Source: an uncultured Actinomycetes bacterium
Lineage (GTDB): Bacteria; Actinomycetota; Thermoleophilia; Solirubrobacterales; Solirubrobacteraceae
Assembly (NCBI GenBank): GCA_963825485.1
Contig: CAWGTK010000003.1
Span: 1,429-65,428 of the forward strand
Reading direction: 5' to 3'
DNA length: 64,000 bases
Positions 27,096 to 64,000 of the stretch are shown here, one piece after another. The position numbers were made by a program, and so were the translations under genes. Numbering within the stretch: position 1 is the first letter of the stretch; every line of letters begins with the position of its first letter. The notes beneath the pieces were generated by a model. It saw nothing but the letters and a program-made list of their open reading frames with translations. It made no database searches and was not told the DNA's origin.

Positions 27096-27854
27096 CTACA
27101 GACCCGCGGGATGCCGCGCGCGATAGCCGCGCCGCGAGGCCGGCTCGGCGCGCCAGCGCGGGCCGTCCTCGCCGCGGCCGGAGGTGTCGAAGCGCAGCCC
27201 CGCGATGACGATGTAGGCGTGCTCGCCGTGCGCGTAGGTGGTCATCCAGCTACCGGCGCCGCGCGCGCCGAATCGCATCAGGCCGGTCGAGTCCAGCGGG
27301 GACTCGAGCAGGCCGGCGGCGTGCAGGACGAAGGAGACCGCGCCTGAGCAGTCGTAGGCCGTGTCCCGGAAGTCGTCGGTGTGGCCGCCGCCGTAGCGGT
27401 AGGGCAGCGAGGTGAGCGAGTTCGCCGCGGCGATCGCCAGCACCACGGGCGCGGGCGCTCCGGCGGGCGCGACGGCGGTGCGGCCGTCGGGGGCCAGGAC
27501 GGCGCGCGCGACGGCCGGTGCGCCTGCCGCGCCCGCGGCGGCGGCGCTCGCCCGCGTCCGCAGTCCGCGCGCCTGGGCACGCGAGACGCGGCCGTCGACG
27601 CGCATGCCGAAGCGGCGCTCGTAGCGGCGCACGCTGCGCGTGGTGCGCGCCCCGAAGACGCCGTCGGCGCGCGTCGGCACGCCGACGCGCGTCATCCAGC
27701 GCTGCAGGACGCGGACGTCGCGCCCGTGATCGCCGCGCGCCAGCGAGCGGTCGCCGAAGCGCACGAAGCGCGCATCGGCATCGGAGATCGGCGCAAGCAG
27801 GCTCGCACCACAGGACAGCGCCGCCAGGGCGCAGGGAAGAAGTCGTGCTCGCAC
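27096..27854 (-). CDS. Secreted cell-wall hydrolase: peptidoglycan-binding domain plus NlpC/P60 domain
   Basis: Signal peptide; PG_binding-like GDHGRDVRVLQRWMTRVGV..DGVFGARTTRSVRRYE; NlpC/P60 YRYGGGH..YDCSGAVSFVLH. Confidence 0.85.
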   Translation of the reverse strand: MRARLLPCALAALSCGASLLAPISDADARFVRFGDRSLARGDHGRDVRVLQRWMTRVGVPTRADGVFGARTTRSVRRYERRFGMRVDGRVSRAQARGLRTRASAAAAGAAGAPAVARAVLAPDGRTAVAPAGAPAPVVLAIAAANSLTSLPYRYGGGHTDDFRDTAYDCSGAVSFVLHAAGLLESPLDSTGLMRFGARGAGSWMTTYAHGEHAYIVIAGLRFDTSGRGEDGPRWRAEPASRRGYRARHPAGL

Positions 27855-27859
27855 GTCGG

Positions 27860-28060
27860 TCGTCCTCGCTTTCCACGTCGCTTACGAGGTGAGCTGACGG
27901 GCTCGCGCTGGAAAGTGCGCTACGCCGGCGTACGCCGGTGATTCGCCCCTGCATGCCGATGGCATGCCGTGGTTCCCCCGCCCGCCGGCGCTCCGGGTGC
28001 GTCGGCGGTTCAGCCGTTCTCGGTCAAGACAAGCCGGCCGCCGGAAAGTTGCGACGTGCC
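27860..28060 (-). promoter_or_regulatory. c-di-AMP riboswitch (ydaO-yuaA class) in the 5' leader of the NlpC/P60 gene
   Basis: Minus-strand segments GCGGGGGAACCAC, GGGGCGAAUCACC and CCCGUCAGCUCACCUCGUAAGCGAC match remembered conserved blocks of the class. CACGUCGC/GCGACGUG and CUUUCCA/UGGAAAG pairings are present. The SD lies in the 3' strand. Confidence 0.75.
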
Positions 28061-30214: not shown

Positions 30215-31174
30215 GCGGGAGTACCGGCGCAGGCGTTGCTTGAAGACGTCGAAGGCGGGACGCGGCGTTCCGTCCGCCTCCAGCAGGCCCGCGTCGAAGC
30301 GACACGTCGAGCCGCAGCCGCCGTTCTCGAGGCCGTACGCGTTGTAGTAGTAGACCCGCTGGACCCCGCGCGACCGGTAGCGACTGGCGTACCTGAAGAC
30401 GTTCTTGACGCGCGCCGCCTGCCGCGACTCGGAATACCTGAACGAGCGGCCGAAGCTCGCGAGGCCCCCGGTCTCGGTGAACCAGAACCTCGCGCGGCGG
30501 TTGTAGCGCCGGACCGCGCTGATGATCCGTGCGGTGCCGCGGGAGCGGTTGCGGTTGACGTCGGAGTAGTTGTGTATGCCGACGATCGTCAGGCGCTTGC
30601 GCCACGTCGGGCTGAGTCGCCGGTAGAACGAGCGGATGTAGCGTTCCACGCCGGCCTGGTCGAGCACGTCGAGGCCGACGACCGCGCACGAGCGGCAGCG
30701 GCGCTTCACCGCCCGGTACATGCTCTTGAAGTACGACGCCGCGTTGCCGATGTGGTTCCAGGTCTCCTGCGTCTTGTGGTTGACCTCGTTCCACGCCCCG
30801 AAGTCGCGCACGCCGAGGCGGCGGAAGTAGGCCACGAGGCGGGCGACGTTGCGGCGGTAGCTCGATGTCGAGACGATCCGGCCGCGCTTGGAGCGCAGGT
30901 CGGCCGTCGAGATGTGCAGCAGCGTGGATACGCCGGCGCGGCGCGCCGCCTTGACGAACGCCCGCGCCTTCAGGCGCTCGGCGCGATCCTGCATGACGTC
31001 GGCCGGCACGAAGTACCGCGTCCGCCGCAGCTTCAGCTCCTGGATCGCCGGCGAGTCGAACATCGCCGGGCTCTGGTCGGCGAGCCCCACGCGGATCGAG
31101 CTGCGAGCCGACGCGGGGCTGGCGGGCGCGAGCAGGAGAAGGGCGAGCAGTGAGATGAGCAGCGTTGAGGGCAT
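30212..31174 (-). CDS. Secreted TIM-barrel glycoside-hydrolase-like protein (clan GH-A-like, smaller paralog)
   Basis: Signal peptide MPSTLLISLLALLLLAPASPASA. Motifs GAWNEVNH and FWFTETGG. Confidence 0.7.
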   Translation of the reverse strand: MPSTLLISLLALLLLAPASPASARSSIRVGLADQSPAMFDSPAIQELKLRRTRYFVPADVMQDRAERLKARAFVKAARRAGVSTLLHISTADLRSKRGRIVSTSSYRRNVARLVAYFRRLGVRDFGAWNEVNHKTQETWNHIGNAASYFKSMYRAVKRRCRSCAVVGLDVLDQAGVERYIRSFYRRLSPTWRKRLTIVGIHNYSDVNRNRSRGTARIISAVRRYNRRARFWFTETGGLASFGRSFRYSESRQAARVKNVFRYASRYRSRGVQRVYYYNAYGLENGGCGSTCRFDAGLLEADGTPRPAFDVFKQRLRRYSR

Positions 31175-31239
31175 GGTGAATCGCAACCCGTGCGCCGGGG
31201 GCCGAGTTGCGGACGCTGTGCGTCCCAAGGCCGCCGTTG

Positions 31240-31638
31240 TCATCGCAATGACGGGCGCACGGGCCGGCGCCGCGCAGCGCTTGCCGTCGCGGATGCGAGC
31301 AGCAGGACGGCGCCACCGCAGAGCACGAGGTTCCAGGCGGCGGCGCTGCCGACCGCCAGCCAGGCTGCGGACCCGACCAACCAGGCACCGGCAAGTCCGA
31401 TGATCACCCGCCACGGCGCAGGACCGACCGCCCCTGCGGTACGAGCGAGTGCCATGAGCGCAACGAGCGCGCCCACGCCCATCGGGTTCCACCATGGGTC
31501 GCTGCCCGCGTAGCCGAGGGTCACCGGCGACAGCACGAGCCATGCGCCGACCGCGAACGAGAGGCAACTCGCGGGACTGATGACGTGGCGCGCCACCGGG
31601 CTCGTCAGGACTCCGATGGTCGGCCGATGGTTCATCAT
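31240..31638 (-). CDS. SPW-repeat membrane protein
   Basis: AGGAGG SD 7 nt before ATG 31638. SFAVGAWLVLSPVTLGY..DPWWNP. Confidence 0.7.
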   Translation of the reverse strand: MMNHRPTIGVLTSPVARHVISPASCLSFAVGAWLVLSPVTLGYAGSDPWWNPMGVGALVALMALARTAGAVGPAPWRVIIGLAGAWLVGSAAWLAVGSAAAWNLVLCGGAVLLLASATASAARRRPVRPSLR

Positions 31639-31738
31639 GGTCATACCTCCTGGCCAGGCGGGATTCGCGACTGCCACAGCGGCGATACCGCCGAACTCAC
31701 CGGCAATCCGGCGCATGGTCAGGGGGCTGACCAATCGG

Positions 31739-32221
31739 TCATGCGGCGCGCGACCGCGCGACGATCGCGCAGAGGGCGGCCAGGGTCATCATGAGCGGCC
31801 CGAAGAAGTAGATGTGCCAGTCGCGAGCGTATGCGTCGGGATCCTGGATCAGGTTGGTCACCCCGGCAAGCGCGAAGACCGCGACGAGCACCCAGGTGCC
31901 CACGCGCAGCAGCCACCGCGGCAGCGCCAGCGTGGCGACCCCGATCCGCGCGAGCAGCAGCACGGCTGCGCAGGCGATCAGGACGGCGACGACCGCGCTC
32001 GCCGCCGGCGCCGGGATCTCGGGCGACCCGTACGCGACGGCGGCTCCCCACGTCCCGCCGGCGGCCCAGTACGCGTGAAATACGAACGCGAACAGCAGGA
32101 TCGCGGCGCCGGCGCAGCCCGCGCCAATGGCGATCGGCGTCGGCGCTCGGCCTGTGGCCGGGTCGGTCATGACGGTTCTCCTTGCGTCGTGGGTGCGCGC
32201 GGTTTGAGCGGTGGTGGTCAT
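31739..32221 (-). CDS. DUF3995-like membrane protein
   Basis: FVFHAYWAAGGTWG. The ATG at 32221 overlaps the upstream stop (ATGA). An alternative ATG at 32170 has an AAGGAG SD. Confidence 0.7.
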   Translation of the reverse strand: MTTTAQTARTHDARRTVMTDPATGRAPTPIAIGAGCAGAAILLFAFVFHAYWAAGGTWGAAVAYGSPEIPAPAASAVVAVLIACAAVLLLARIGVATLALPRWLLRVGTWVLVAVFALAGVTNLIQDPDAYARDWHIYFFGPLMMTLAALCAIVARSRAA

Positions 32222-32766
32222 CGGTCCTCCTGTGGATGGGCGAAATGCGGGACAAGACGTGAGCAGCGGCGTGGCCGCGGAACGCTGGCGGCCGGTGCCT
32301 CGTTGTGGCGTGTCCGCCATGCCGTGACCGCGAAGCTCAGGCCGAGCACGACGAAGCACGAGTACACGCCGATGTAGATCGGCGGGGTGAGCATTGGATC
32401 GGGTCGTCCGGCGACGGCCTCCGCGACGGTCCCCGCGAGGCTGAGCAGCCCGACCGGGGTCATGATCGCGAAGCCCAACCATGCCAGCGACGCGCGTAGG
32501 CGCCGCGGTACTTGGCGGCCCCACGGCTGCACGAGCGACTGCAGGATCGCGGCGGCAATCAGGGCGAGCAATACGGTGGCCCACACCGCGATCAGGGGTC
32601 CTCCGATCTGAGCCATGAAGTCCTCGAAGACCGCGCTGTCGCGCACGCCGACCGTGCTGCCCAACCCCCATGCGGTCTTGATGGCGGCGTAGCCTGCTGC
32701 GGCGGCGCACCCCACGTGGGCGGCCGTGATCGCCTGCTTGTGGGGTGTTGAGGTCATGGTCGTCAC
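32218..32766 (-). CDS. Four-TM membrane protein (DUF3995-related)
   Basis: AAIKTAWGLGSTVG followed by hydrophobic helices. Divergent from the kinase gene. Confidence 0.65.
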   Translation of the reverse strand: MTTMTSTPHKQAITAAHVGCAAAAGYAAIKTAWGLGSTVGVRDSAVFEDFMAQIGGPLIAVWATVLLALIAAAILQSLVQPWGRQVPRRLRASLAWLGFAIMTPVGLLSLAGTVAEAVAGRPDPMLTPPIYIGVYSCFVVLGLSFAVTAWRTRHNEAPAASVPRPRRCSRLVPHFAHPQEDR

Positions 32767-32865
32767 TCTCGCGGCGACCGCCGGCGCGTTCGTCCCCCGT
32801 GCGAGCGATCTGCCTCACTCCTGCGAGGGATTTGCCAGCCCGCAGGCGTGTGACACGATCGCCAG

Positions 32866-34113
32866 ATGCCGCGAGCGCGTGAACTGCTGGCCATCCCCGT
32901 CCGCAGGTCGACATGGCAGCGCTTCGTGTATCTCGGGATCGGCACCGCGTTGATCGCGCCGTTCGGGACACTCGCCGGGTTCCTCGCGCCCGTGCTGGAG
33001 GGCGGCCTGGGAGAGCCCGCGGCATGGACGGTCGCAAGCGTGGTGTGCTTCGGTCCGCTGGCGATCGCTACGGGGATGCTGGCGTCCGTGCGCAATCTCG
33101 AGATCGCCGCGGTGCGCCGGCTGCTCGGCGTCGAGCTCGCTGATGCTGCTGCGCTCCACGCGCCGATCTCATGGTCGACGCGCTGGCGCTCGGCGGGGTG
33201 GTTCGCCGCGCACCTCGTCGCGGGCGGCGTGATCGGTGCGCTGACGCTCGTGCTGCCGCCGGCGGCCGTGTCCGCCTGCCTGGCGCCGTTTGCCTCCGAA
33301 GACATCCAGCTCGGTCAGCTGGACGCGACGGTGCCCGGTGGGCCTGCGAGCGCGTGGCTGGTGCCGCTCGCCCTGCTGTCACCGTTCGCACTCGTCTACC
33401 TCGTCGCGGCCGCGAGCGCGATCCTCGCGCGCGCGGCGCCGCGCCTGCTCGGCCCGTCGCCGGCCGAGCGGCTCGCCGCCGTGCAGCGCGACGCTGTGCG
33501 CCTGGCCGAGCGCAACCGGCTCGCGCGCGAGCTGCACGACTCCGTCGGCCACGCGCTGAGCATCGTGACGGTGCAGGCCGGCGCCGCAGGGCGTGTGCTC
33601 GACGACGATCCGGCGTTCGTTCGCGAGGCACTGACGAACATCGAGACCTCCGCGCGCCACGGCCTGCGCGACCTCGATCACGTCCTCGGCCTGCTGCGCG
33701 AGGACGGCGCTGACTCGCGCGCTCCGACACCCACCCTGGCTGACCTGCAGCGACTCGTCGAAAGCTCGCGGTCCGCCGGCATCGAAATCACCGCCGAACT
33801 GACCGGCGAGATCGACGAGGTACCCCAGGCGGTCTCGCGCGAGGCCTACCGGATCGTCCAGGAGAGCCTGACGAACGCCGCGCGTCATGCGGGCCGCGCG
33901 CCGGTCAGCCTGAGCCTCAACGTCGGCGCGGATGAGCTCGAGCTCGAGCTGACCAATCCGCTCGGCGCATCGCGTCCGCGGCGTTCGGGCGGCGGCCGCG
34001 GCCTGAACGGCATCCAAGAGCGCGTCACGAGCCTGCGCGGCCAGATGTCCGCCGGCCCCGACGCGGGCCGCTGGCGCGTCTGCGTGCGACTGCCGCTGCA
34101 CCCCACGCCATGA
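32866..34113 (+). CDS. Membrane sensor histidine kinase (HisKA_3)
   Basis: H-box RLARELHDSVGHAL and HATPase GGGRGLNGIQERV. Confidence 0.9.
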   Translation: MPRARELLAIPVRRSTWQRFVYLGIGTALIAPFGTLAGFLAPVLEGGLGEPAAWTVASVVCFGPLAIATGMLASVRNLEIAAVRRLLGVELADAAALHAPISWSTRWRSAGWFAAHLVAGGVIGALTLVLPPAAVSACLAPFASEDIQLGQLDATVPGGPASAWLVPLALLSPFALVYLVAAASAILARAAPRLLGPSPAERLAAVQRDAVRLAERNRLARELHDSVGHALSIVTVQAGAAGRVLDDDPAFVREALTNIETSARHGLRDLDHVLGLLREDGADSRAPTPTLADLQRLVESSRSAGIEITAELTGEIDEVPQAVSREAYRIVQESLTNAARHAGRAPVSLSLNVGADELELELTNPLGASRPRRSGGGRGLNGIQERVTSLRGQMSAGPDAGRWRVCVRLPLHPTP

Positions 34114-34763
34114 GCCTCGGCATCGTGCTCGTCGACGACGAACCGCTGATCCGCAGCGGCCTGCGCGCGATCATCAACGCCGAAGCAGACCTCAGCGTCA
34201 TCGGCGAGGCCGAGGACGGAGCCGGCGTCACCGCGCTCGTGCGCCGCCTGCGCCCCGATGTCGTGCTGATGGACGTCCGCATGCCAGGCGTCGACGGCAT
34301 CGAGGCGACGCGACGCCTACTCGCCAACCTCGACGACCCGCCCCGCATCCTCGTCCTCACGACCTTCGAGAACGACGATTACGTCTTTGACGCTCTTCAC
34401 GCTGGAGCGTCCGGATTTCTGCTCAAGCGCGCCCGAGCCGACGAGGTCATCCGTGCGATCCGGCTGCTCGCCGCCGGTGATTCGCTGCTCTTTCCGGCCG
34501 CGATCCGCGCACTTGCGGCGCGCAACTCGCCCCCCGCGCCGTCCGCCCGCGGCCTTGATGCGGCAGGGCTCACCGAACGCGAGGCCGAGGTGCTGCGCCT
34601 CGTCGCGCGCGGGCTGTCGAACGCCGAGATCGCCGCGCACCTGATCGTCAGCCTCGAAACGGTCAAGACCCACGTCGCGCATCTGCTCACCAAGCTCGAA
34701 GCGCGCGATCGCACGCAAGCGGTCATCCGCGCCTACCAGAGCGGATTCATCACGCCCCAATGA
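34110..34763 (+). CDS. NarL/FixJ-family response regulator
   Basis: IVLVDDEPLIRSGL..VVLMDVRMPGVDG; LTEREAEVLRLVARGLSNAEIAAHLIVSLETVKTH. ATGA overlap with the kinase. Confidence 0.93.
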   Translation: MSLGIVLVDDEPLIRSGLRAIINAEADLSVIGEAEDGAGVTALVRRLRPDVVLMDVRMPGVDGIEATRRLLANLDDPPRILVLTTFENDDYVFDALHAGASGFLLKRARADEVIRAIRLLAAGDSLLFPAAIRALAARNSPPAPSARGLDAAGLTEREAEVLRLVARGLSNAEIAAHLIVSLETVKTHVAHLLTKLEARDRTQAVIRAYQSGFITPQ

Positions 34764-35439
34764 CGTGCACCGCTCGTCGATCGAAGCCGGCCGCGCGGGC
34801 CGACTTCGACGAGGACGCGGCGATCTGCAGCATCCGCCTGGCGTGGCCGCGGGCGGCGCGCGTGACTCGTCATGTTCGACGACGACGACGCCGAGGTCGG
34901 GCGCCGCGAGCTCGTGCACGGCGACGACGCCGAACTTCAGACGTTCCTGGCCGGCGGCTAGCACTGGTCCGTGCGCTACCAGCTGCCGTTCGCGGCCCCC
35001 ACGCGCGGCAACCTCATCCAGGAGCTCCACCCAGCAGGGCTCTGGCGGCGCCCGAGAGCACTTCTGGGAGTACTGGCCGATCGAGGCCAACCAGCGCGAG
35101 CCGCTGCCGGCGGAGCGCACCAACACGCCGAGCGTGGGTCACGCCCACCGGCGTCCCGTACGACGACCGCTAGGTCCACGGTGTCGTTCCCAGCGCCCCG
35201 CAGGCGCCCGCGGGGTGGCATCGCCATATCGGGATCGCGGTCTCATCCCGGACCGCTGCCGCCGCAGTTCACGGCAGCCAACCGCCAGACCCGGGACATG
35301 CCGACCGGCTGGACCGGCACCGGCACGCGCCACGACTGCTACGACGAATGGGGCCGCCGCCCCGGGCGGCCGCGCCGGCTCGGCCGCGTCGCGGGAGCCA
35401 CTCGGCGCACGTCGTCGACCGGCAGCGGTCCCGGGACGA

Positions 35440-36396
35440 TCAGGCCGACCCGTCCGACCCGGCCATGCGGTCGGCGACGAGCCGGCCGAGCAACCGGCTC
35501 AGCTTGGCGTCCTCGCGCTCCCACTCCACAGCGCTGCGCCTCGAAAACAGAAGGTCCGCGACCGCGTTGTCTGGATCATGATCGCCTGCCATCAGGAAAT
35601 GTCGGTTGCCCTCGAAGAAGGTGTATCTCCCGTCCTCGTGACGATGGTAGTCAAGCGCGATGACATCGGCGTCCAGCGCGCTCGCGGCGCGAACGAGCAG
35701 TTCCGGGTGCGGGTCGCCATCCCGACAGAACGCCAGATCCTCGGCCGCGGCCTGTTCATCAGCGATGCACGAATCAACGTTGACGCGCCAGTCTGACCCC
35801 AGATTCATCGTTCTCGGCAGAACCCGGCCCCCGACCACGTAGCTGCGCCATTTGCGATAGAGCCTGTCGCTGTGGCGCGTGTCGATGTACTCGATGGCGA
35901 GATCCAACGGTCGTTGGCCCTGCAGCTCGCGTGCCGCCACGATCTGCCGCGCCTCGTCGCTGTCGCGCGCCAAGTGCACGTCACGTCCCTGATGCTGCCC
36001 GTCGACACGGAGTATCAGCGGGAAGTCGAGCGAGACCTCGTCAACGGAGGTGAAGGCCTCCACTCGAGCGCAGGGCACGCCCGCTGCAGCCCAGCGTGTC
36101 AGACATGACCGGTGAGCTGTCATGCAGTATCTGGCTGAGTTGACGACGGGGATGCCCGTGGCGGCCTGGGCGTCTTCGAACCGCCGCGCCCAGAGCGGGA
36201 AGTCGTTGGTGCGATACCCGTAGGACCAGCACACGATCACGTCGAAGGGCTCGGCCTCCAGAGCAGTCCACGGCTGATGCAGCGTCCACCGGATCCCGAG
36301 CTCGTCGAGTCCTTGCAGAAGCAGGCGGCTCGCAGCCCGCTGCGTGAACTGCGCGGGATCCTTGTAGGGCGTGACGATCAGGGCGTGAGAACCCAT
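35440..36396 (-). CDS. ATP-grasp fold enzyme (RimK/GshB-like ligase)
   Basis: FPLILRVDGQHQGRDVHLA; AIEYIDTRHSDRLYRKWRSYVVGGRVL; DADVIALDYHRHEDGRYTFFEGN. More A/T-ending codons than its neighbours, by eye. Confidence 0.75.
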   Translation of the reverse strand: MGSHALIVTPYKDPAQFTQRAASRLLLQGLDELGIRWTLHQPWTALEAEPFDVIVCWSYGYRTNDFPLWARRFEDAQAATGIPVVNSARYCMTAHRSCLTRWAAAGVPCARVEAFTSVDEVSLDFPLILRVDGQHQGRDVHLARDSDEARQIVAARELQGQRPLDLAIEYIDTRHSDRLYRKWRSYVVGGRVLPRTMNLGSDWRVNVDSCIADEQAAAEDLAFCRDGDPHPELLVRAASALDADVIALDYHRHEDGRYTFFEGNRHFLMAGDHDPDNAVADLLFSRRSAVEWEREDAKLSRLLGRLVADRMAGSDGSA

Positions 36397-36398
36397 GA

Positions 36399-36689
36399 CT
36401 AGCGGACGCAGGTCGGCCGGTTCGTTGGTGATCGCTCTGCGAGGTCGACGTCAACGCGTGAGTTCCTGCGATGCACCGCGTATGCCGTTGCGCCGGCCGC
36501 CGGTCCAGCTGTCTGGCACCGGGGAGCGCTCGATGCTGCGCGCTCCCCTGCTGTCCCATTCCGGCCCGGCGACCGCTCACCCTCGGCTGGCAGCACGGTC
36601 GCGACGCTCACAACGCCGGGCCCGTGATCGACGAGCGGGCGGGCCACGTCGCCAGACACGATCTTCTTCAGGACGGGAACCCATTTCAT
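36399..36689 (-). CDS. 96-aa ORF of unknown function wedged between the acylase and the ATP-grasp gene
   Basis: The ATG at 36689 overlaps the acylase TGA (ATGA). Its TAG is 2 nt before the ATP-grasp ATG. Begins MKWVPVLKKIVSGDVARPLVDHGPGVV... The second half is low-complexity with weaker codon bias. Confidence 0.4.
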   Translation of the reverse strand: MKWVPVLKKIVSGDVARPLVDHGPGVVSVATVLPAEGERSPGRNGTAGERAASSAPRCQTAGPAAGATAYAVHRRNSRVDVDLAERSPTNRPTCVR

Positions 36690-39031
36690 GCCGGTCTGAG
36701 GGTGATGACGTGCTCGGTTGCGTCCTGGACGGCCGCCCGTGAGTAAAGCAGCGGAAAGGACTCACCGCGCATCCAGGGCTCGAAGAGACTCGTGCTCTTG
36801 TGCCCGTCGAGTTGCCCAGATTGCCCTGGCGCGTTCATTGCCCGGGATTCGTCCCAGCTACCGACGTCGATCACGACTCGGAAGGTTGCCCCGTGGACCT
36901 GTCGAAACCCCGACGCGTAGAGCGTGTTGCAGACCGTGTCGCCACTGCCCTGCTGCGGAAGGGGGCCCGCGGCGAGCTGGTCCCAAGGTAGTGAAGTCAG
37001 TACCGGTGAGAGGGGATGGCGCACATGCGCGCTGTGTAGGCGGCCCCAGGACCACCCAGAGCGCGCCGTGCCCAGCAGCCGCTCGATGTCAGCGACTGCG
37101 CTGCGTAGTGTCCGTTCGACGATGTCGATCAACCCAGGGTTGTCCGTGCCGATCATCGCACGTGCGTCCTCGACCAGATCGAGGTCGACGCGCGGGTCTC
37201 CGCGCGAGTCGCGCGTCGCCATCCGTTTCATGGCCGCATCAACTTCGTGCGCGGGGACGATACGTCGCAGAGCCGTCCGCAGCAGCTCTGGTCGAAGGTG
37301 CCGGCGGTACCACACCTCGAACAGCGCGGCCGCAGCAGAGTCCGTCGTTAGGTGTCCGTCCCAACGCAGCAGCATGTCAAGCTCCGGTGTGGCGGGAATG
37401 TCCAACTGCCGCACCGCCGTCAGGATGCTCTGCGCTGGAATGCTGAGCACATCTGTCTGCAACGCCAGCATGTCTTCGACGGAGCTATGTTGCCGGGCGG
37501 CCAGCACGTCGTCGATGCGTTGTTTGCGGTAGCGCGGCTTCCACTCGTAGCCGATGTTGAGGTGACGCGCACCGTCCTGCGAAATGTTCATCTCATTCGC
37601 CGTCGCGATCCAGCCGTTTGGCGGATTGAAACGGACGGGGAACTCTTGGGCCGGATGAAATCCGGCCCACTCGTACTGCCCGTCGCCGGGGACCGGCAGC
37701 AAACCGTCCCAATTCGGTCGGATCGGTGCAAGTCCTGCAGCCTTCCAGCCGATATTGCCGGCGATGTCCGCGAAGACGTGGACCTCGGGTGGCGCGCCCC
37801 AACCGTCGACCGCGGCAAGGAAGCTCTGCCAGTCTTTAGCCCCCATCACCTCGATTCCGCGCAGGTAGGGGGCCGTGCCGGGTGCAAGCCACGCGGCGCG
37901 AACCGCGAACGCCGTGTTGGTTGGGCCGTCCTCGAAGATCACGGGTCCGTGGCGTGTGAAGCGAAGCTCGGCCTCCACCGGTGGGCCGTCCTTGACCGGG
38001 ATCTGTTCGATGATGACCGTCATGGCTTCCCAGTCGCCGTCGTAGCGATACTCGAGGGGGTTCTCGGGGTTCACTCGGTAGACATACAGGTCCTCTTGGT
38101 CGATGGGCCAGAACGTGATCCCGAAGGCGATGGACCCGTTGTGCCCGATCGAGATGCCCGGCCCGACGGGCTCGCCGGCCCCGATCACATCCAGCCCGGG
38201 CGCTGACAGGTGCGCGATGTACCGTTCCCCGGGCAGGTTGCCGGTTTCGCGGTGCGGGTCGCTGCAGAGGATGGGCCGCCCGGTCGTCGTGCGAGCTCCA
38301 GCTACGGCCCAGCTGTTGCTGCCGCCTGCCGTCTGATCACGTGGCGAGTGCGCCTCGCCGCCGACACCGATCTGGGGCATCAGCGTCGCGAGGTGATAGG
38401 TCCTCAGGACGTTATGGGGGATCAACGTCAAGTCGAGCCCGTCCGGCACCGCGATCTCGTGGGGCGGCTCCACGCGAAACCGAAGCGACTCGGCGGCTAC
38501 CCCGTGGTCGCGTATTGTCAGCGCGCGCGCAACCTCTTGGCGAAGGTTGAGAAAGAAGCCACGGCCGCGGATGGCGGCGAGATCCCCGAGGTCCCAGAAA
38601 TCGGGCTCGTACTCCAGTTCGCGGAACTCCGCCGGCAGCAGACTCGTGTCCACCCGGGTCAGCTGAATGTACGCGTTGACGCCTTCCACCCACGCGCGTG
38701 CCGCATCCGCCGCAGTCGGCCCGTAGTCGCGCCATTCCGCGTCGGTGTCGCCCCGATAGAGGAACAGCCTCGCGGCGCGGTCGCGCTCGACGTGCTCTGG
38801 CCCCAGCATCGCTGCGACGCGCCCGAGGCCGCGACGACGCGCATAGTCGATCTGCCACAAGCGCTCTCGCGCGATATTGAACCCTTGCACCCGGAAGGCA
38901 TCGTCAGTACTTCCGGCGTAGATGTGGGGGACGCCCCAGCGGTCGACGAGGATCTCGGCATCCGCCTCGAGACCGGGCAGCACGAACGCGCTAGAGGTGA
39001 CGTGGGTTGACATCTGGGAGCCAAGGCGCAC
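36686..39031 (-). CDS. Penicillin-acylase-family Ntn hydrolase (S45) without a recognisable signal peptide
   Basis: VDRWGVPHIYA and the nucleophile region GGSNSWAVAGARTTTGRPILCSDPH. The N-terminus MRLGSQMSTHVTSSAFVLPG is not hydrophobic. The start may instead be ATG 39013. Confidence 0.88.
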   Translation of the reverse strand: MRLGSQMSTHVTSSAFVLPGLEADAEILVDRWGVPHIYAGSTDDAFRVQGFNIARERLWQIDYARRRGLGRVAAMLGPEHVERDRAARLFLYRGDTDAEWRDYGPTAADAARAWVEGVNAYIQLTRVDTSLLPAEFRELEYEPDFWDLGDLAAIRGRGFFLNLRQEVARALTIRDHGVAAESLRFRVEPPHEIAVPDGLDLTLIPHNVLRTYHLATLMPQIGVGGEAHSPRDQTAGGSNSWAVAGARTTTGRPILCSDPHRETGNLPGERYIAHLSAPGLDVIGAGEPVGPGISIGHNGSIAFGITFWPIDQEDLYVYRVNPENPLEYRYDGDWEAMTVIIEQIPVKDGPPVEAELRFTRHGPVIFEDGPTNTAFAVRAAWLAPGTAPYLRGIEVMGAKDWQSFLAAVDGWGAPPEVHVFADIAGNIGWKAAGLAPIRPNWDGLLPVPGDGQYEWAGFHPAQEFPVRFNPPNGWIATANEMNISQDGARHLNIGYEWKPRYRKQRIDDVLAARQHSSVEDMLALQTDVLSIPAQSILTAVRQLDIPATPELDMLLRWDGHLTTDSAAAALFEVWYRRHLRPELLRTALRRIVPAHEVDAAMKRMATRDSRGDPRVDLDLVEDARAMIGTDNPGLIDIVERTLRSAVADIERLLGTARSGWSWGRLHSAHVRHPLSPVLTSLPWDQLAAGPLPQQGSGDTVCNTLYASGFRQVHGATFRVVIDVGSWDESRAMNAPGQSGQLDGHKSTSLFEPWMRGESFPLLYSRAAVQDATEHVITLRPA

Positions 39032-39362
39032 GCGGCGCCCGATCCGGGTGTCGAGAGCAAGCAGCCGAGAAGCTCGCCGCTCATCGCCGAGCGGTTGAAC
39101 CGGCGATCAGTCTCCGCCGATCGTGCTGCTCGCGCGAGCCGGTCTCGCCAGTCCGGGCGCGACCGTGTCACACGATCGAGGCAATGTCAACGCGGCCGCC
39201 CGTCAGGCGCTCGAGCCCCGCGGTCGTGCACGGTCTGTGCGCGCTCGCGATCGAGCGCGGGCGGCCGGTCGCGTGCGTGTCGCAGCTGCTGATCGAGCGG
39301 TGCGCTCGTCCAGACAGGCGCAGTGTCGCGAACCGTCCGGACCGCTCGCCACGATTGCGGTC

Positions 39363-39644
39363 ATGGACGACGCCGACCTCACCGCACTGCGCATCCCCAC
39401 CGCACTGCGTGACCGCACCCGCGCGATCCTCTCGGTCACCGACCAGGCATGCACCGACCATCTCGACGGGGATCAGCCCGCGGCGGCGGGCTCGTCTTGC
39501 ACCTCGACCACCACGGCGCCGCATGACCACGACGGCACGCCTGAGCGGCTCGACGCGCTCATCGACGACCGCACCGTCGACGCCGCCAGCCAGCCCGCGC
39601 CGATCGTGGCCGCGTACCGCCGCTGGCAGGGGCGCACGCCATAG
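39363..39644 (+). CDS. Small hypothetical protein, possibly a gene fragment
   Basis: MDDADLTALRIPTALRDRTRAILSVTDQACTDHLDGD... No strong SD. Confidence 0.25.
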   Translation: MDDADLTALRIPTALRDRTRAILSVTDQACTDHLDGDQPAAAGSSCTSTTTAPHDHDGTPERLDALIDDRTVDAASQPAPIVAAYRRWQGRTP

Positions 39645-39743
39645 CGAGCGCAGCGCCGTGAGCCGGCCCCGGCTCGTGCGTGAGCGAGGCGCGACGCTCG
39701 CGCACCCGAGATCCGAACCTGCCTACCAGCTGCCCGGCACCGC

Positions 39744-40925
39744 ATGAGCACCGTCGCGCGGACCTGTCTCGCCCCGCTCGCGGCCGCTGCGCTCGCGGTG
39801 GCGGCGCTCATCCCGGCGGGCGCTGACGCCGGCGTCGCGCTGCGCGTCGTCAACGGGACGCCGCTTGCCCCCGGTCAGGTGCCGTGGCAGGTCGCGGTGC
39901 GCTGGACGATGGCCCGCACCACCACCACGACCGTCGACCCGGACGGGCGCGTCACCACGACCACGCTGCTGAAGATCGCCGACTGCGGCGGCGCCGTGCT
40001 CGACGCCACCCGCATCCTGACCGCGGCGCACTGCTTCCTCGACGAGGCCGACCCGGGGCGCCGGGCCGCGCCCGCGGACGTCGCGGTCAACGCCGGCACC
40101 GCACAGAAGAAGCCCGCCGACGACGCCGTGGGCGTCCAGCGGGCTGCGGTGGCCGCGATCGCGATCCATCCCCACTACGCCCCCGCGGCGCGCGAGAAGG
40201 CGCCCGACGTCGCGGTCGTCACCTTGGCCGCGCCGCTGGATCTGACCGGACCGTACGTCGGCCCTGCGACGCTGCCGGGAGCGACCGATCGCCGCCCGGG
40301 CGCGGGTACGCCGCTCACGGTCTCCGGGTTCGGTGAGGGCACCGCGGTCGGCACGCTGCATGGCGGCGAGGTCCGGACGGTGAAGAGCACCCGCCGAGAC
40401 TGCCGGCAGCTCGGCGGCCCCTCCCGCGAGGCGCTGACCGTCTGTGCCCGGGCGGCGCCCCCGACGTTCGCGACCACGTGCAACGGAGACAGCGGCGGGC
40501 CCGTGACGCTGGTCGGCACGTCGACGCTGGCGGGGATCGTCTCGCGCCGGTCCGGACCCTGCGGCAGCGGGACGATGGCGTTCGTCGACGTCGCGGCGCC
40601 GGAGATCCGGGCCTTCGTGGACGGCGCCCGCGTCGTGCCCTACGCGCCGCGCAGCGCCGGCGGCGAGCCGGCCCGGCTGAGCGGCCGCATGTCCCGGGGC
40701 CGGCTGATCCGCTGTGCGAGCGGCCGGTGGCGGCACGCCACGCGGACGCGCTACACGTTCGCCTGGGCGGGCACCCCCGGCCGGACCCGCCAGTCGGGAG
40801 CGTCGCGCCTGTACCGCCTGACCCGGGCCGACTTCGGCCGGCGGCTGCGCTGCACGGTCACGGTGTCGAGCCCGGGCGGCAGCATCGAGGTGGTCGGCGA
40901 GCTCGGGCAGCGCACCCGGAGGTAG
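39744..40925 (+). CDS. Secreted trypsin-like (S1) serine protease with a C-terminal Ig-like domain
   Basis: Signal peptide; RVVNG; TAAHC; GDSGGP. C-terminal CASGRW..YTFAW..RLRCTVTV. Confidence 0.9.
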   Translation: MSTVARTCLAPLAAAALAVAALIPAGADAGVALRVVNGTPLAPGQVPWQVAVRWTMARTTTTTVDPDGRVTTTTLLKIADCGGAVLDATRILTAAHCFLDEADPGRRAAPADVAVNAGTAQKKPADDAVGVQRAAVAAIAIHPHYAPAAREKAPDVAVVTLAAPLDLTGPYVGPATLPGATDRRPGAGTPLTVSGFGEGTAVGTLHGGEVRTVKSTRRDCRQLGGPSREALTVCARAAPPTFATTCNGDSGGPVTLVGTSTLAGIVSRRSGPCGSGTMAFVDVAAPEIRAFVDGARVVPYAPRSAGGEPARLSGRMSRGRLIRCASGRWRHATRTRYTFAWAGTPGRTRQSGASRLYRLTRADFGRRLRCTVTVSSPGGSIEVVGELGQRTRR

Positions 40926-41051
40926 GCGAACGCGCCAGCTTCGGCCTGCGCGGAGCACCATCGGCGCACGCGCTGCGAATGGACTGCTGACCACGCACTC
41001 AGCGCGCCCGCCGACCTTGTCGAGGCGTGTTCGTCCAAGGAGGACCCACCG

Positions 41052-46919: not shown

Positions 46920-47445
46920 CGGTACCTCCGGCGTCGCAGGTCTGCGCCGTGCGCGGTGCGAAGCGCCCGAACACGTGCGCCAGCGTGTGGATCTCGTCCT
47001 CCTCGAGCTGATCGAAGAATGCCGCCTGGACGGAGGCGAAGTGCGTTGCCTGCGCGCTGCGCACGAGCGCGAGTCCCGCGCCGTTGATCTGCGCGTGGAC
47101 GGCGCGCGCGTCGCTCGGGCAGGCGTGGCGGTCGACGAGGTTGCGCTCCTCGAGCACGCCGATGATCCGCGAGACGCGGCTGAGGCTCAGGCCCGACGCG
47201 CCCGCGAGCGCCGTGAGGTGCATCTGGCGATCGTCGGCTGCGGCGAGCCGTGCCAGCAGCTCGAGGCCGCTGAGGCTCAGGCCGTGCTTGGCGATGAGCT
47301 CGGCGTCGAGCGCGCGCGTGAGCTGTTTGTGGGTCTCGAGCAGGCCGATCCACGCGTCGGCGTGCGCCTCCGACCAGTGGGCGAGGCCCTGCTCGTCGGT
47401 CTCATACGAACAGCTGTGGGGCTTGGGGGTGAGCTTCTCCGGCAT
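46906..47445 (-). CDS. MarR-family transcription regulator
   Basis: LSLSGLELLARLAAADDRQMHLTALAGASGLSLSRVSRIIGVLEERNLVDR. Confidence 0.88.
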   Translation of the reverse strand: MPEKLTPKPHSCSYETDEQGLAHWSEAHADAWIGLLETHKQLTRALDAELIAKHGLSLSGLELLARLAAADDRQMHLTALAGASGLSLSRVSRIIGVLEERNLVDRHACPSDARAVHAQINGAGLALVRSAQATHFASVQAAFFDQLEEDEIHTLAHVFGRFAPRTAQTCDAGGTDEPA

Positions 47446-47480
47446 GTCTGGCCTCCTGCCACGTCAGGATAGCGCGAAAG

Positions 47481-47494
47481 GTTGCGCGCGCAAC
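47481..47494. promoter_or_regulatory. Perfect 14-bp palindrome GTTGCGCGCGCAAC in the MarR/YceI divergent intergenic region (candidate operator)
   Basis: Read directly. It lies 36 nt upstream of the marR-like start. Confidence 0.4.
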
Positions 47495-47554
47495 TATCTG
47501 TGCTACGGTTGCTCTAGCAAGCAAATCAGGCGCACCTCAGGAGGCACCACGAAA

Positions 47555-48103
47555 ATGAGCACTGCAACGATCGCCCCGACCGGAACCTGGACCGTCGACC
47601 CCACGCACTCTCGTGTCGGGTTCTCCGTCAAGCACCTCGGCATCGCCACCGTCCGCGGCACGTTCAATGAGTTCGAGGGCACGCTGGAGATCGGTGATGA
47701 CCTCACGACCGCCAAGGCCTACGGGACGGTCAAGACGGCATCGGTCGATACGAACGAGTCCAACCGTGACGACCACCTGCGCACCGCCGACTTCTTCGAC
47801 GCCGAGAACTACCCCGAGATCACGTTCGAATCGACGTCGATCGAGGCGATCGACGAGGACTCGCTGAAGATCCTCGGCAACCTCACGATCAGGGACGCCA
47901 CGAACGAGGTCGAGCTCCTCGCCGAGATCGGCGGCACCGAGCTCGATCCGTGGGGCAACGACCGCGTCGGCCTCGAGGCCGTCGGCAAGATCTCACGCGA
48001 CGACTTCGGGATCAAGTTCAACATGGCGCTCGGCAGCGGCAACGTCGCCGTCGGCGACAAGGTCACGCTGAGCCTCGACATCTCGGCCGTCAAGTCGGCG
48101 TAG
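47555..48103 (+). CDS. YceI-family polyisoprenoid-binding protein
   Basis: GGAGG SD; WTVDPTHSRVGFSVKHLGIATVRGTF..SNRDDHLR..FFD. Confidence 0.9.
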   Translation: MSTATIAPTGTWTVDPTHSRVGFSVKHLGIATVRGTFNEFEGTLEIGDDLTTAKAYGTVKTASVDTNESNRDDHLRTADFFDAENYPEITFESTSIEAIDEDSLKILGNLTIRDATNEVELLAEIGGTELDPWGNDRVGLEAVGKISRDDFGIKFNMALGSGNVAVGDKVTLSLDISAVKSA

Positions 48104-62969: not shown

Positions 62970-63630
62970 CGAGCAGCCCCTCCACGCCCGACAGCGCCGG
63001 CGGCTCGCCGTCCAACTACGCGAGGGTCGACCGGACCGCGGGCTCGATTGGATCGAAACCAGTTCCAACCTCATCCGCAACGCGACTGCCACGACCGACG
63101 ACCGCCTCTCGGCTATCCGAAACGCCCTTGCCGATACGGCCTCCAACGGCTCACCTCTGCCGTGGAGGCTTGGGTACGATCAGGCATCCCGTGCTCGTGC
63201 GGCGCTCGGCTTGGCCCCGGCCGAGCTGATGAACCCTGCGGAGCTCATGTCCGTGCGTAGATCGGCCGTCTCAGATCGGGGATTGCAGGGGCTCGGGGGC
63301 GGATCGGAGACGCACTCGCCGACATTGGTTCTCGGGCGGTCGCCGCCTCTCGAGTCTACGACGCGATTCGCATCAGCCCGGGCACTCTGGCATTTCGTTA
63401 GCCATCCGCAACGCGAGCGATTCCTGCTGACGCCAACTCGCACCGACGTCCCCCGCATCGAACGCGCGTTTGCAGCAGAACTGCTCGCTCCCGCCGCGGG
63501 GTTGCGAGAGCAGTTCATCGACGCGCCGGGTGCTGCCACGGACGACGACCTCGACGCTGCTGCCGCGCACTACCACGTCTCGCCACTGCTGATCCGGCAT
63601 CAGATCGACAACCAACTGCTCGCTACGTAG
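62970..63630 (+). pseudogene. ImmA/IrrE (DUF955)-like gene with a degenerate metal motif and no canonical start for its N-terminal part
   Basis: The open frame begins after the TGA near 62966: ...DDRLSAIRNALADTAS..YDQASRARAALGL...RFASARALWHFVSH (in place of HExxH)...ERAFAAELLAP..HYHVSPLLIRHQI. The first ATG/GTG/TTG is the TTG at 63211. Confidence 0.45.
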
Positions 63631-64000
63631 TGGGTATCGTGGTCGACTCAGGTTTCTGGGCCGAGCCTTGGAAATGGGCCTTGCGGATACCGGCCCGCTG
63701 AGCTCCGACGGGCCTCTGGCGGGGGGCGCCGGCGGCCAGCGGACGCGGGTTCGAAGACGGTCAGAATCCTCGTGTCCGATCGCTTGCCCGAAAATCGTCG
63801 TGCAACGGGGGGACGAGCGTAAAGACAGCGGCAGCGGGGCGGGAAGGACGTCATGCGAACCCTCGACCCACGATCCAACTCCTGATCGAGCGTCTCGTGG
63901 ATCCAGCAGGGCGCCGATCGCGATCACAGGCAGCGATGGCTCTGCGTCGGGTGAATCAGTCCCGGTCGATACGGACGCTGACGAAGCCCAGCGCTGACGC

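Follow-up and report, generated by a model that had tools for sequence, protein, structure and literature searches.

A low-GC block in a Solirubrobacteraceae genome is likely a horizontally acquired mosaic of an S45 acylase and a rare ATP-grasp ligase, joined over the scar of a third gene

Can three tightly packed open reading frames (ORFs) with an unusual composition be read as a biochemical pathway? We asked this question for positions 35440-39031 (~3.6 kb, hereafter the block) of a 64,000-nucleotide (nt) stretch of DNA, the window, from a soil metagenome-assembled genome (MAG) of the Solirubrobacteraceae (Thermoleophilia); all coordinates refer to the whole window. The block consists of three ORFs on the minus strand, encoding a penicillin-acylase homologue of 781 amino acids (aa), a product of 96 aa (ORF96) and an ATP-grasp protein of 318 aa. 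The acylase gene ends with ...CCG GCA TGA, in which the TGA overlaps the ATG of ORF96 (ATGA), and the TAG of ORF96 is followed by TC and then by the ATG of the ATP-grasp gene, leaving a gap of 2 nt. An earlier note, made from the sequence by eye, had described the same three ORFs and junctions, and coordinates and sequence agreed with it; it had interpreted them as an acquired cassette in which a ligase and a hydrolase act around a small protein. We consider it likely that the block does not encode a three-gene pathway but was acquired horizontally and combines, as a partly decayed mosaic, two genes unrelated to each other. The features of the block are as follows.

35440-36396, minus strand: ATP-grasp carboxylate-amine ligase (predicted) of a rare uncharacterised family; 318 aa, intact; RimK-like PF08443, E 1e-7
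36399-36689, minus strand: ORF96, judged a chance open frame over the spacer; no homologue but itself; flat codon-position GC content
36460-36576, minus strand: Bestrophin-like (PF14023) remnant; 39 codons, tblastn match, bounded by stops
36686-39031, minus strand: S45 N-terminal nucleophile (Ntn) hydrolase of the penicillin-acylase family, D-succinylase-like actinobacterial clade; 781 aa, intact

The evidence that carries this reading was found in the spacer between the acylase and the ATP-grasp gene. Read in a frame other than that of ORF96, bases 36576-36460 encode AVAGPEWDSRGARSIERSPVPDSWTGGRRNGIRGASQEL. Of these 39 residues 25 are identical to residues 112-150 of a 281-aa protein encoded at L002:5207-6052 (tblastn E 2e-10 against the whole window), which belongs to PF14023 (E 3e-24) and whose gene lies directly upstream of an ATP-grasp orthologue 67% identical to the one in the window. 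A second Bestrophin-like copy is present in the orthologous locus of contig L007, and 24/39 residues are identical to L007:12750-13595. The remnant is closed by stops at 36577-36579 and 36457-36459 and lies in the frame of the ATP-grasp gene, not in that of ORF96. Because it matches a protein adjoining an ATP-grasp orthologue, is bounded by stops and is out of frame with ORF96, we concluded from the alignment that the spacer is the scar of a Bestrophin-like neighbour gene. The middle of ORF96 is an out-of-frame reading of this scar, which is the decisive point against ORF96 as a gene. A low-stringency search of the spacer and both flanks detected no Bestrophin-like fragment beyond the 39-codon piece.

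A 128-aa ORF was also observed at L007:7611-7997, ending 3 nt before the orthologous ATP-grasp gene; it resembles the C-terminal end of the aconitase large subunit (Pfam E 0.044, below threshold; ..STHNRNF.. recognised by eye). Judging from this ORF, rearrangement scars just upstream of the ATP-grasp gene may be recurrent in the family.

The properties of ORF96 itself point in the same direction. Among 5.8 billion proteins the only match to ORF96 was ORF96 itself, and searches of ORF96 and the flank ORFs with PADLOC, Pfam and NCBIfam gave no matches. Its GC content at codon positions 1, 2 and 3 (GC1, GC2, GC3) was flat with 0.72/0.61/0.74, as compared with 0.70/0.48/0.79 in the neighbour genes. 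Among arbitrary frames of 96 codons, 42% in the window and 29% within the block were free of stops, and when the ATGA start was kept fixed an ORF spanning the gap was obtained in 14% of shuffled spacers. Gene callers disagreed, ORF96 being uncalled in the 99.7%-identical contig L006 and called on a short Logan contig. ORF96 ends in ...NRPTCVR, and no LysW-like carrier ORF, i.e. one with an acidic C-terminal tail motif, was found in the window or in nine ATP-grasp loci (L002, L003, L004, L005, L007, L088, L096, L098, L108). The small ORFs upstream of orthologous ATP-grasp genes were related neither to ORF96 nor to one another. Graspetide systems, which produce ribosomally synthesised and post-translationally modified peptides (RiPPs), differ in that a conserved precursor gene stands beside the ligase. 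We concluded that ORF96 reads as a chance ORF and not as a conserved gene, at most as an accidental translated bridge, so that the earlier interpretation of the 96-aa ORF as a gene was not upheld: it has no homologue, shows a flat GC phase, is expected by chance and lies over the Bestrophin-like scar. The block is an example of how, in high-GC DNA, small ORFs lying over pseudogene scars can look convincingly like translationally coupled genes.

The arrangement of the three ORFs was not found in other organisms. Besides the near-identical copies of the window, 39 ATP-grasp loci were inspected, five from exact look-ups and 34 from a metagenome scan, and in 0/39 was an acylase homologue within reach of the ATP-grasp gene. 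Conversely, no ATP-grasp gene was found beside three of the nearest acylase homologues (Geodermatophilus, Pseudonocardia and a JGI contig), where the gene contexts were unrelated. The order acylase, ORF96, ATP-grasp was present only in near-identical copies of the source organism; the search for the triad in other genomes that the earlier note had proposed therefore returned neither the triad nor the acylase/ATP-grasp pair. The note had let its ligase and hydrolase logic stand or fall with conservation of the triad and a coding signal in ORF96, and neither was seen. We rejected the functional triad because the adjacency is not conserved and ORF96 has neither a coding signal nor a homologue. 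Generally, the fact that genes are neighbours in one genome says little about a shared pathway.

The composition of the block set it apart from the rest of the window. Its GC was 0.662, as compared with 0.7305 ± 0.0125 (minimum 0.704) in 3.6-kb windows that did not overlap it, corresponding to z = −5.5, and it was the lowest-GC 3.6-kb stretch in the 64 kb. The edges were sharp; at a resolution of 300 nt the drop extended from ~35.45 kb to ~39.05 kb, coinciding with the outer limits of the two large ORFs. GC3 was 0.79-0.80 in the block and had a mean of 0.889 (standard deviation 0.058) in 49 putative genes of the window. The difference noticed earlier by eye was in this way confirmed by calculation. 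Additionally, the block has the same GC (0.66) as the contigs on which the closest ATP-grasp orthologues are encoded (0.66-0.67).

The genomic surroundings were compared among relatives. The DUF4394 gene neighbouring the block was 76-86% identical in other Solirubrobacteraceae soil MAGs, and in these close relatives the block, the sensor kinase/response regulator pair and the trypsin-like gene were all missing. In one relative (L010:8830-10966) the DUF4394 gene follows directly after the homologue of window positions 30320-31226, and L010 is without the whole ~31.3-41.0 kb stretch, comprising a sensor kinase/response regulator pair, the block and a gene for a trypsin-like protease. Because the DUF4394 gene is joined directly to the 30320-31226 homologue in L010, we concluded from this comparison that window positions ~31300-41000 (~10 kb) appear as a variable region among Solirubrobacteraceae relatives. 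The 25.5-31.2 kb stretch was observed to be inverted in L010. The outlying composition, the match in GC to the orthologue contigs and the variability of the region in relatives together support horizontal acquisition of the block, as the earlier note had also proposed. The direction and timing of the transfer are inference only.

Close copies of the block gave information on its variation. Contig L006 was 99.7% identical, with differences at only five places in 4.7 kb. In the left flank these were an 11-nt indel near 34770 and a TAG/TGG difference at 35171-35173, and in the right flank one substitution at ~39371. Two adjacent nonsynonymous changes (G/S, Q/R) were located in a variable loop of the ATP-grasp protein (35900-35910), and the acylase gene and ORF96 were identical. 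The whole block was matched in at least four soil metagenome runs, all from one study; a search of sequencing runs of any library kind with the whole block gave matches to soil DNA runs only.

Both flanks returned to a GC typical for the host:

34764-35439, no strand assigned: left flank; host-like GC 0.743; no recognisable gene (no Pfam match for its ORFs); polymorphic as compared with contig L006
39032-39743, no strand assigned: right flank; host-like GC 0.730; no Pfam match; possible small ORF 39366-39644 on the plus strand

The flanks had earlier been described as lacking intact genes. This was correct insofar as no gene recognisable by Pfam was present, and uncertain for the right flank, where the ORF at 39366-39644 (plus strand, 92-93 aa) showed a coding-like GC phase and no Pfam match. 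At the equivalent place of contig L006 a 93-aa gene was called by the gene caller of that assembly.

What kind of proteins do the two large genes encode? An AlphaFold2 model of the ATP-grasp protein reached a predicted local distance difference test score (pLDDT) of 91.7 and a predicted template modelling score (pTM) of 0.90. The top Foldseek matches were ArgX/LysX, Ddl and RimK (probability 1.00, template modelling score 0.5-0.6, E about 1e-13, 14-19% identity), and from the model the ATP-grasp fold can be assigned with confidence. LysX, ArgX, RimK and the D-Ala-D-Ala ligases have the three-domain ATP-grasp fold, the K/R and the D-E-N residue set in common with the window protein. The curated models scored it far below their cut-offs, with 32.5 bits against 275.6 for LysX (TIGR02144), 37.7 bits against 143.4 for the RimK alpha-L-glutamate ligases (TIGR00768) and a similarly remote result for CofF. 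LysX/ArgX systems have a LysW carrier, whereas the window contains no LysW-like ORF.

Within its own family the ATP-grasp protein is well preserved. It aligned over its full length with the homologues, its start codon aligned with the starts of the orthologues, and 49/52 family-conserved columns (≥90%) were retained, including K182, R184, D249, E262 and N264. The family is very rare, with 54 representative clusters at E ≤ 1e-30 among 1.84 billion in a full hidden Markov model scan and 43 matches in a word-indexed search. No match to the protein was found in a plasmid collection, and an alignment of the DNA upstream of the orthologous ATP-grasp starts revealed no conserved leader or ribosome-binding site. 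We infer that the protein acts in a small-molecule pathway as a carboxylate-amine ligase, forming a peptide-like bond.

The closest relatives of the ATP-grasp protein (60-67% identical) are encoded on contigs L002, L003 and L007, and two recurrent gene contexts, A and B, were recognised for the family:

L002:3600-14100: context A
L003:7000-13000: context A
L007:200-13600: context A
L108:5070-8966: context A, in part
L004:2300-10700: context B
L005:2300-11200: context B
L088:3500-11300: context B
L090: context B

Context A comprises genes for a homocitrate-synthase-like protein, the large and small subunits of aconitase, Iso_dh (the Pfam name of the isocitrate/isopropylmalate dehydrogenase family) and a class-IV aminotransferase (Aminotran_4). 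It also contains one or two Asp/Arg beta-hydroxylases (Asp_Arg_Hydrox), GNAT and Bestrophin-like genes, and in some loci CmcI-like proteins and pyridoxal-phosphate-dependent (PLP) enzymes. The GC of the context-A contigs was 0.66-0.67 and the GC3 of their ATP-grasp genes 0.72-0.77. The homocitrate-synthase-like, aconitase and Iso_dh genes beside the ATP-grasp orthologues resemble the gene sets of the alpha-aminoadipate/LysW pathway. Neighbourhoods of ATP-grasp peptide synthetases with dioxygenases, CmcI-like methyltransferases, aminotransferases and GNATs have been described (Iyer et al., PMC2938197, and their reference 60). By gene content context A matches these neighbourhoods, and L002, L003 and L007 carry exactly these gene types, whereas the window holds only the Bestrophin-like fragment; none of the context-A partner genes was found in the window.

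Context B is formed by two tandem paralogous ATP-grasp genes (35-41% mutual identity) together with genes for a phosphoribosyltransferase-like (PRTase-like) protein, TauD, an acyltransferase, a phosphotransferase (APH-type kinase) and a protein with beta-lactamase fold. The tandem ATP-grasps in context B are preceded by the PRTase-like protein, of 209 aa, in which the motif VWLIDDIVNTGRS, resembling a binding site for phosphoribosyl pyrophosphate (PRPP), was recognised by eye. Both biosynthetic contexts are apparently undescribed, and this very rare ATP-grasp family may be of interest to specialists.

The acylase matched PF01804 over positions 1-674 of 675 (E 1.3e-181). The nearest solved structure was the D-succinylase of Cupriavidus sp. 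P4-10-C (PDB 7EBY, 7EA4; MEROPS S45), to which residues 13-780 of the acylase aligned with residues 36-823 (E 1.2e-188, 632.6 bits). Both proteins carry the GSN.W nucleophile motif, N..ADxxGNIGW and the C-terminal PGQSG; the deposited D-succinylase chain has 35 residues before the aligned region that are absent from the acylase. We concluded that the two enzymes are related from end to end, while a specificity for N-succinyl-D-amino acids is only predicted. Two codons of the predicted active site were located by alignment to solved beta chains, using a beta numbering of 7reo_A that starts at 1:

38318-38320, minus strand: codon of Ser238, predicted N-terminal nucleophile of the beta chain (GG|SNSW)
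37595-37597, minus strand: codon of Asn479, the counterpart in the alignment of beta-chain Asn241 in penicillin G acylase (PGA; 7reo_A)

Ser238 aligns with residue 1 of the beta chains in solved acylases, and the GGSNSW sequence is present. Asn241 of the PGA beta chain we take to be an oxyanion-hole residue, with Asn479 as its counterpart in the acylase. Val417 aligns with position 178 of the PGA beta chain; it was considered as a replacement of the oxyanion-hole Asn and ruled out, the Asn of beta-241 being kept as N479.

In the acylase frame a stop occurs 25 codons upstream, no start codon lies between, and the conserved motif of the mature domain, LPGL..AEI.VDRWGVPHI, begins already at residue 18. 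The upstream stop and the position of this motif leave no space in which a signal peptide could be encoded. In nearly all of the nearest 120 homologues the sequence ..LPGL..AEI.VDRWGVPH begins within ~5-30 residues of the N-terminus and is not preceded by a hydrophobic leader. Judged from inspected members of these 120, the signal-less state is a trait of the clade and not a peculiarity of the cassette. The earlier observation of a signal-less acylase with GGSNSW was hence correct on both counts, while the missing signal is not special to it. The actinobacterial clade, annotated as 'penicillin acylase family protein' (Pseudonocardia, Geodermatophilus, Amycolatopsis, Homoserinimonas and others), shares the length (~770-790 aa) and this N-terminus, and its members are stand-alone genes in varied contexts. 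More than 7000 homologues of the acylase were found, the nearest 60% identical and nearly all named ones from Actinomycetota; a physiological substrate is not known for this large clade of signal-less S45 acylases of the D-succinylase type, which may likewise interest specialists.

The acylase of the window is unusual in its clade. Its mean identity to the homologues was 56%, as compared with 69% among the homologues themselves. It deviated at 32 of 258 columns that are at least 97% conserved in the 119 nearest homologues, for which the median was 1 and the maximum 16, so that its deviation was twice that of the next most deviant homologue. Beside the nucleophile the substitutions were N240S, A256C and N257S; other deviations were L290G, N417V, P484S and R693Q/G694Q. 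As compared with D-succinylase and the 119 homologues, the acylase has SNS in place of SNN, CSDPH in place of ANDPH, and Val in place of Asn at 417. No frameshift or stop and no majority-supported deletion of at least 5 residues was detected relative to the homologues. By these comparisons the acylase stands out as a long-branch outlier, and the substitutions may reflect either a changed specificity or relaxed constraint.

Our preferred explanation, the mosaic of two unrelated genes, can be put together from these results as follows. The acylase would be a cytoplasmic enzyme. As expected from its family, it would mature by self-cleavage just ahead of Ser238, giving an alpha and a beta chain, and would hydrolyse, within the cell, an N-acyl amide such as an N-succinyl- or N-acyl-amino acid. 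The ATP-grasp protein, whose orthologues act in clusters for small molecules derived from amino acids, would activate a carboxylate as acyl-phosphate and join it to an amine in a peptide-like bond, and in the window it has lost its cluster partners. In the ancestral order a Bestrophin-like gene preceded the ATP-grasp gene, and the 290-nt spacer is its remains: the gene lost its first ~111 codons by 5' truncation, and ~440 nt were deleted between its codon 150 and the ATP-grasp start. ORF96 is a by-product of the high GC, the scar being read out of frame.

Several observations speak against this explanation. The exact ATGA and TAG-N2-ATG junctions were obtained in only 1.8% of shuffles, and the ATP-grasp start has no visible Shine-Dalgarno sequence. 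Because of these two points translation of ORF96 could matter for expression of the ATP-grasp gene. The acylase and the ATP-grasp gene, both intact, share one strand and are separated by just 290 nt, in which no terminator-like site was seen; they are probably co-transcribed and could have gained a joint function. The terminator scan gave a single terminator-like site, inside the acylase gene, a count below chance expectation, and the promoter scan gave no promoter-like sites. The GC of the acylase gene is the same as that of the ATP-grasp gene, and because of this equality the two may have travelled together from one unsampled donor. Regarding the acquisition, none of the relatives located by DUF4394, among which synteny was poor, had a site that cleanly lacked the 3.6-kb block and nothing else; no tRNA was detected in the window scan, flanking direct or inverted repeats amounted to short imperfect matches only, and no mobility gene or integrase was seen in the flanks.

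The alternative that survives best takes up these points, namely that the acylase and the ATP-grasp gene form a functional pair and ORF96 an accidental bridge. We regard this as the main surviving alternative and as an unlikely one. In its general form it proposes a newly assembled functional module of acylase and ATP-grasp, which could for instance give immunity to the peptide-like metabolite of the orthologue clusters or salvage it, with ORF96 only as a translational bridge. The two intact ORFs of equal GC and strand with no terminator between them favour it, as do the 49/52 conserved positions kept by the ATP-grasp protein and the occurrence of the same arrangement in at least four soil metagenome runs, which come from one study; N240S, A256C and N257S near the nucleophile could mean a new specificity. 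On the other hand the pairing is known from a single lineage, the junction is a deletion scar and not a designed intergenic region, and the only population differences inside the ATP-grasp gene are nonsynonymous (n = 2, both in the variable loop). Furthermore, a literature search found no biochemical link between the two families and no described pathway in which an S45 acylase and such an ATP-grasp occur together, and we know of no such link ourselves. Given this evidence the general form seems improbable to us, if less so than the other alternatives. A more specific version holds that the deletion which destroyed the Bestrophin-like gene joined the two genes into a new module for immunity to, or recycling of, the metabolite made by neighbours with the full cluster, that the divergent acylase pocket was adapted to this compound, and that translation of ORF96 serves only to bring ribosomes to the start of the ATP-grasp gene, which lacks a Shine-Dalgarno sequence. 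This version we hold to be somewhat less probable still.

The pro-drug logic of the earlier note has its model in pyoverdine maturation, where the S45 acylase PvdQ removes an acyl group from a peptide-like metabolite. The PvdQ model scored the window acylase with 42.7 bits against a cut-off of 950. PvdQ-type acylases are exported and encoded inside their clusters, whereas the window acylase lacks a cluster, an export signal and any conserved linkage.

Alternatively, both genes could have lost their function and be in decay, in which case relaxed selection after the transfer would account for the low GC as well as for the long branch of the acylase. The 32/258 near-invariant positions changed in the acylase, twice the number of the next of 119 homologues, would fit such a decay, as would the reduction of the neighbour gene to a 39-codon fragment, the flanks with no recognisable genes and the absence of the ATP-grasp cluster partners anywhere in the window. 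Against it, the frames of 781 and 318 codons are free of frameshifts and stops, the acylase shows no majority-supported deletion of 5 or more residues, the ATP-grasp protein aligns over its full length, and Ser238, Asn479 and the K/R/D/E/N set of the ATP-grasp protein are retained; an unconstrained frame of 781 codons at 66% GC would soon gain stops. We consider decay of both genes quite improbable.

The functional three-gene operon, in which ORF96 is a carrier or precursor, the ATP-grasp protein loads or modifies it and the acylase cleaves later (following an amino-group-carrier, graspetide or pro-drug logic), draws on the tight stop/start junctions, on the LysW-using LysX/ArgX among the nearest structural neighbours and on a weak TIGR02144 match, but it is highly improbable given an ORF96 for which 5.8 billion proteins contain no homologue, which lacks a coding GC phase and which overlaps a Bestrophin-like pseudogene fragment out of frame, the lack of an acidic-tailed LysW-like ORF in the window and nine related loci, upstream small ORFs at orthologous loci that are unrelated to ORF96 and to each other, a LysX score far below the cut-off, and the absence of the triad from the 39 other ATP-grasp and 3 acylase loci.

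Beyond the block, a few other features of the window were recorded. Two further 1-kb stretches had a low GC, 47001-48000 (0.668) and 63001-64000 (0.661), and a putative gene at 47084-48103 on the plus strand showed an unusual GC1 of 0.52. An Rfam search over the whole window gave a cyclic di-AMP (c-di-AMP) riboswitch as its sole match, far from the block. This riboswitch (27864-28025, minus strand; RF00379, 58 bits as compared with a gathering score of 38) lies immediately upstream of a 252-aa ORF at 27096-27854 on the minus strand.

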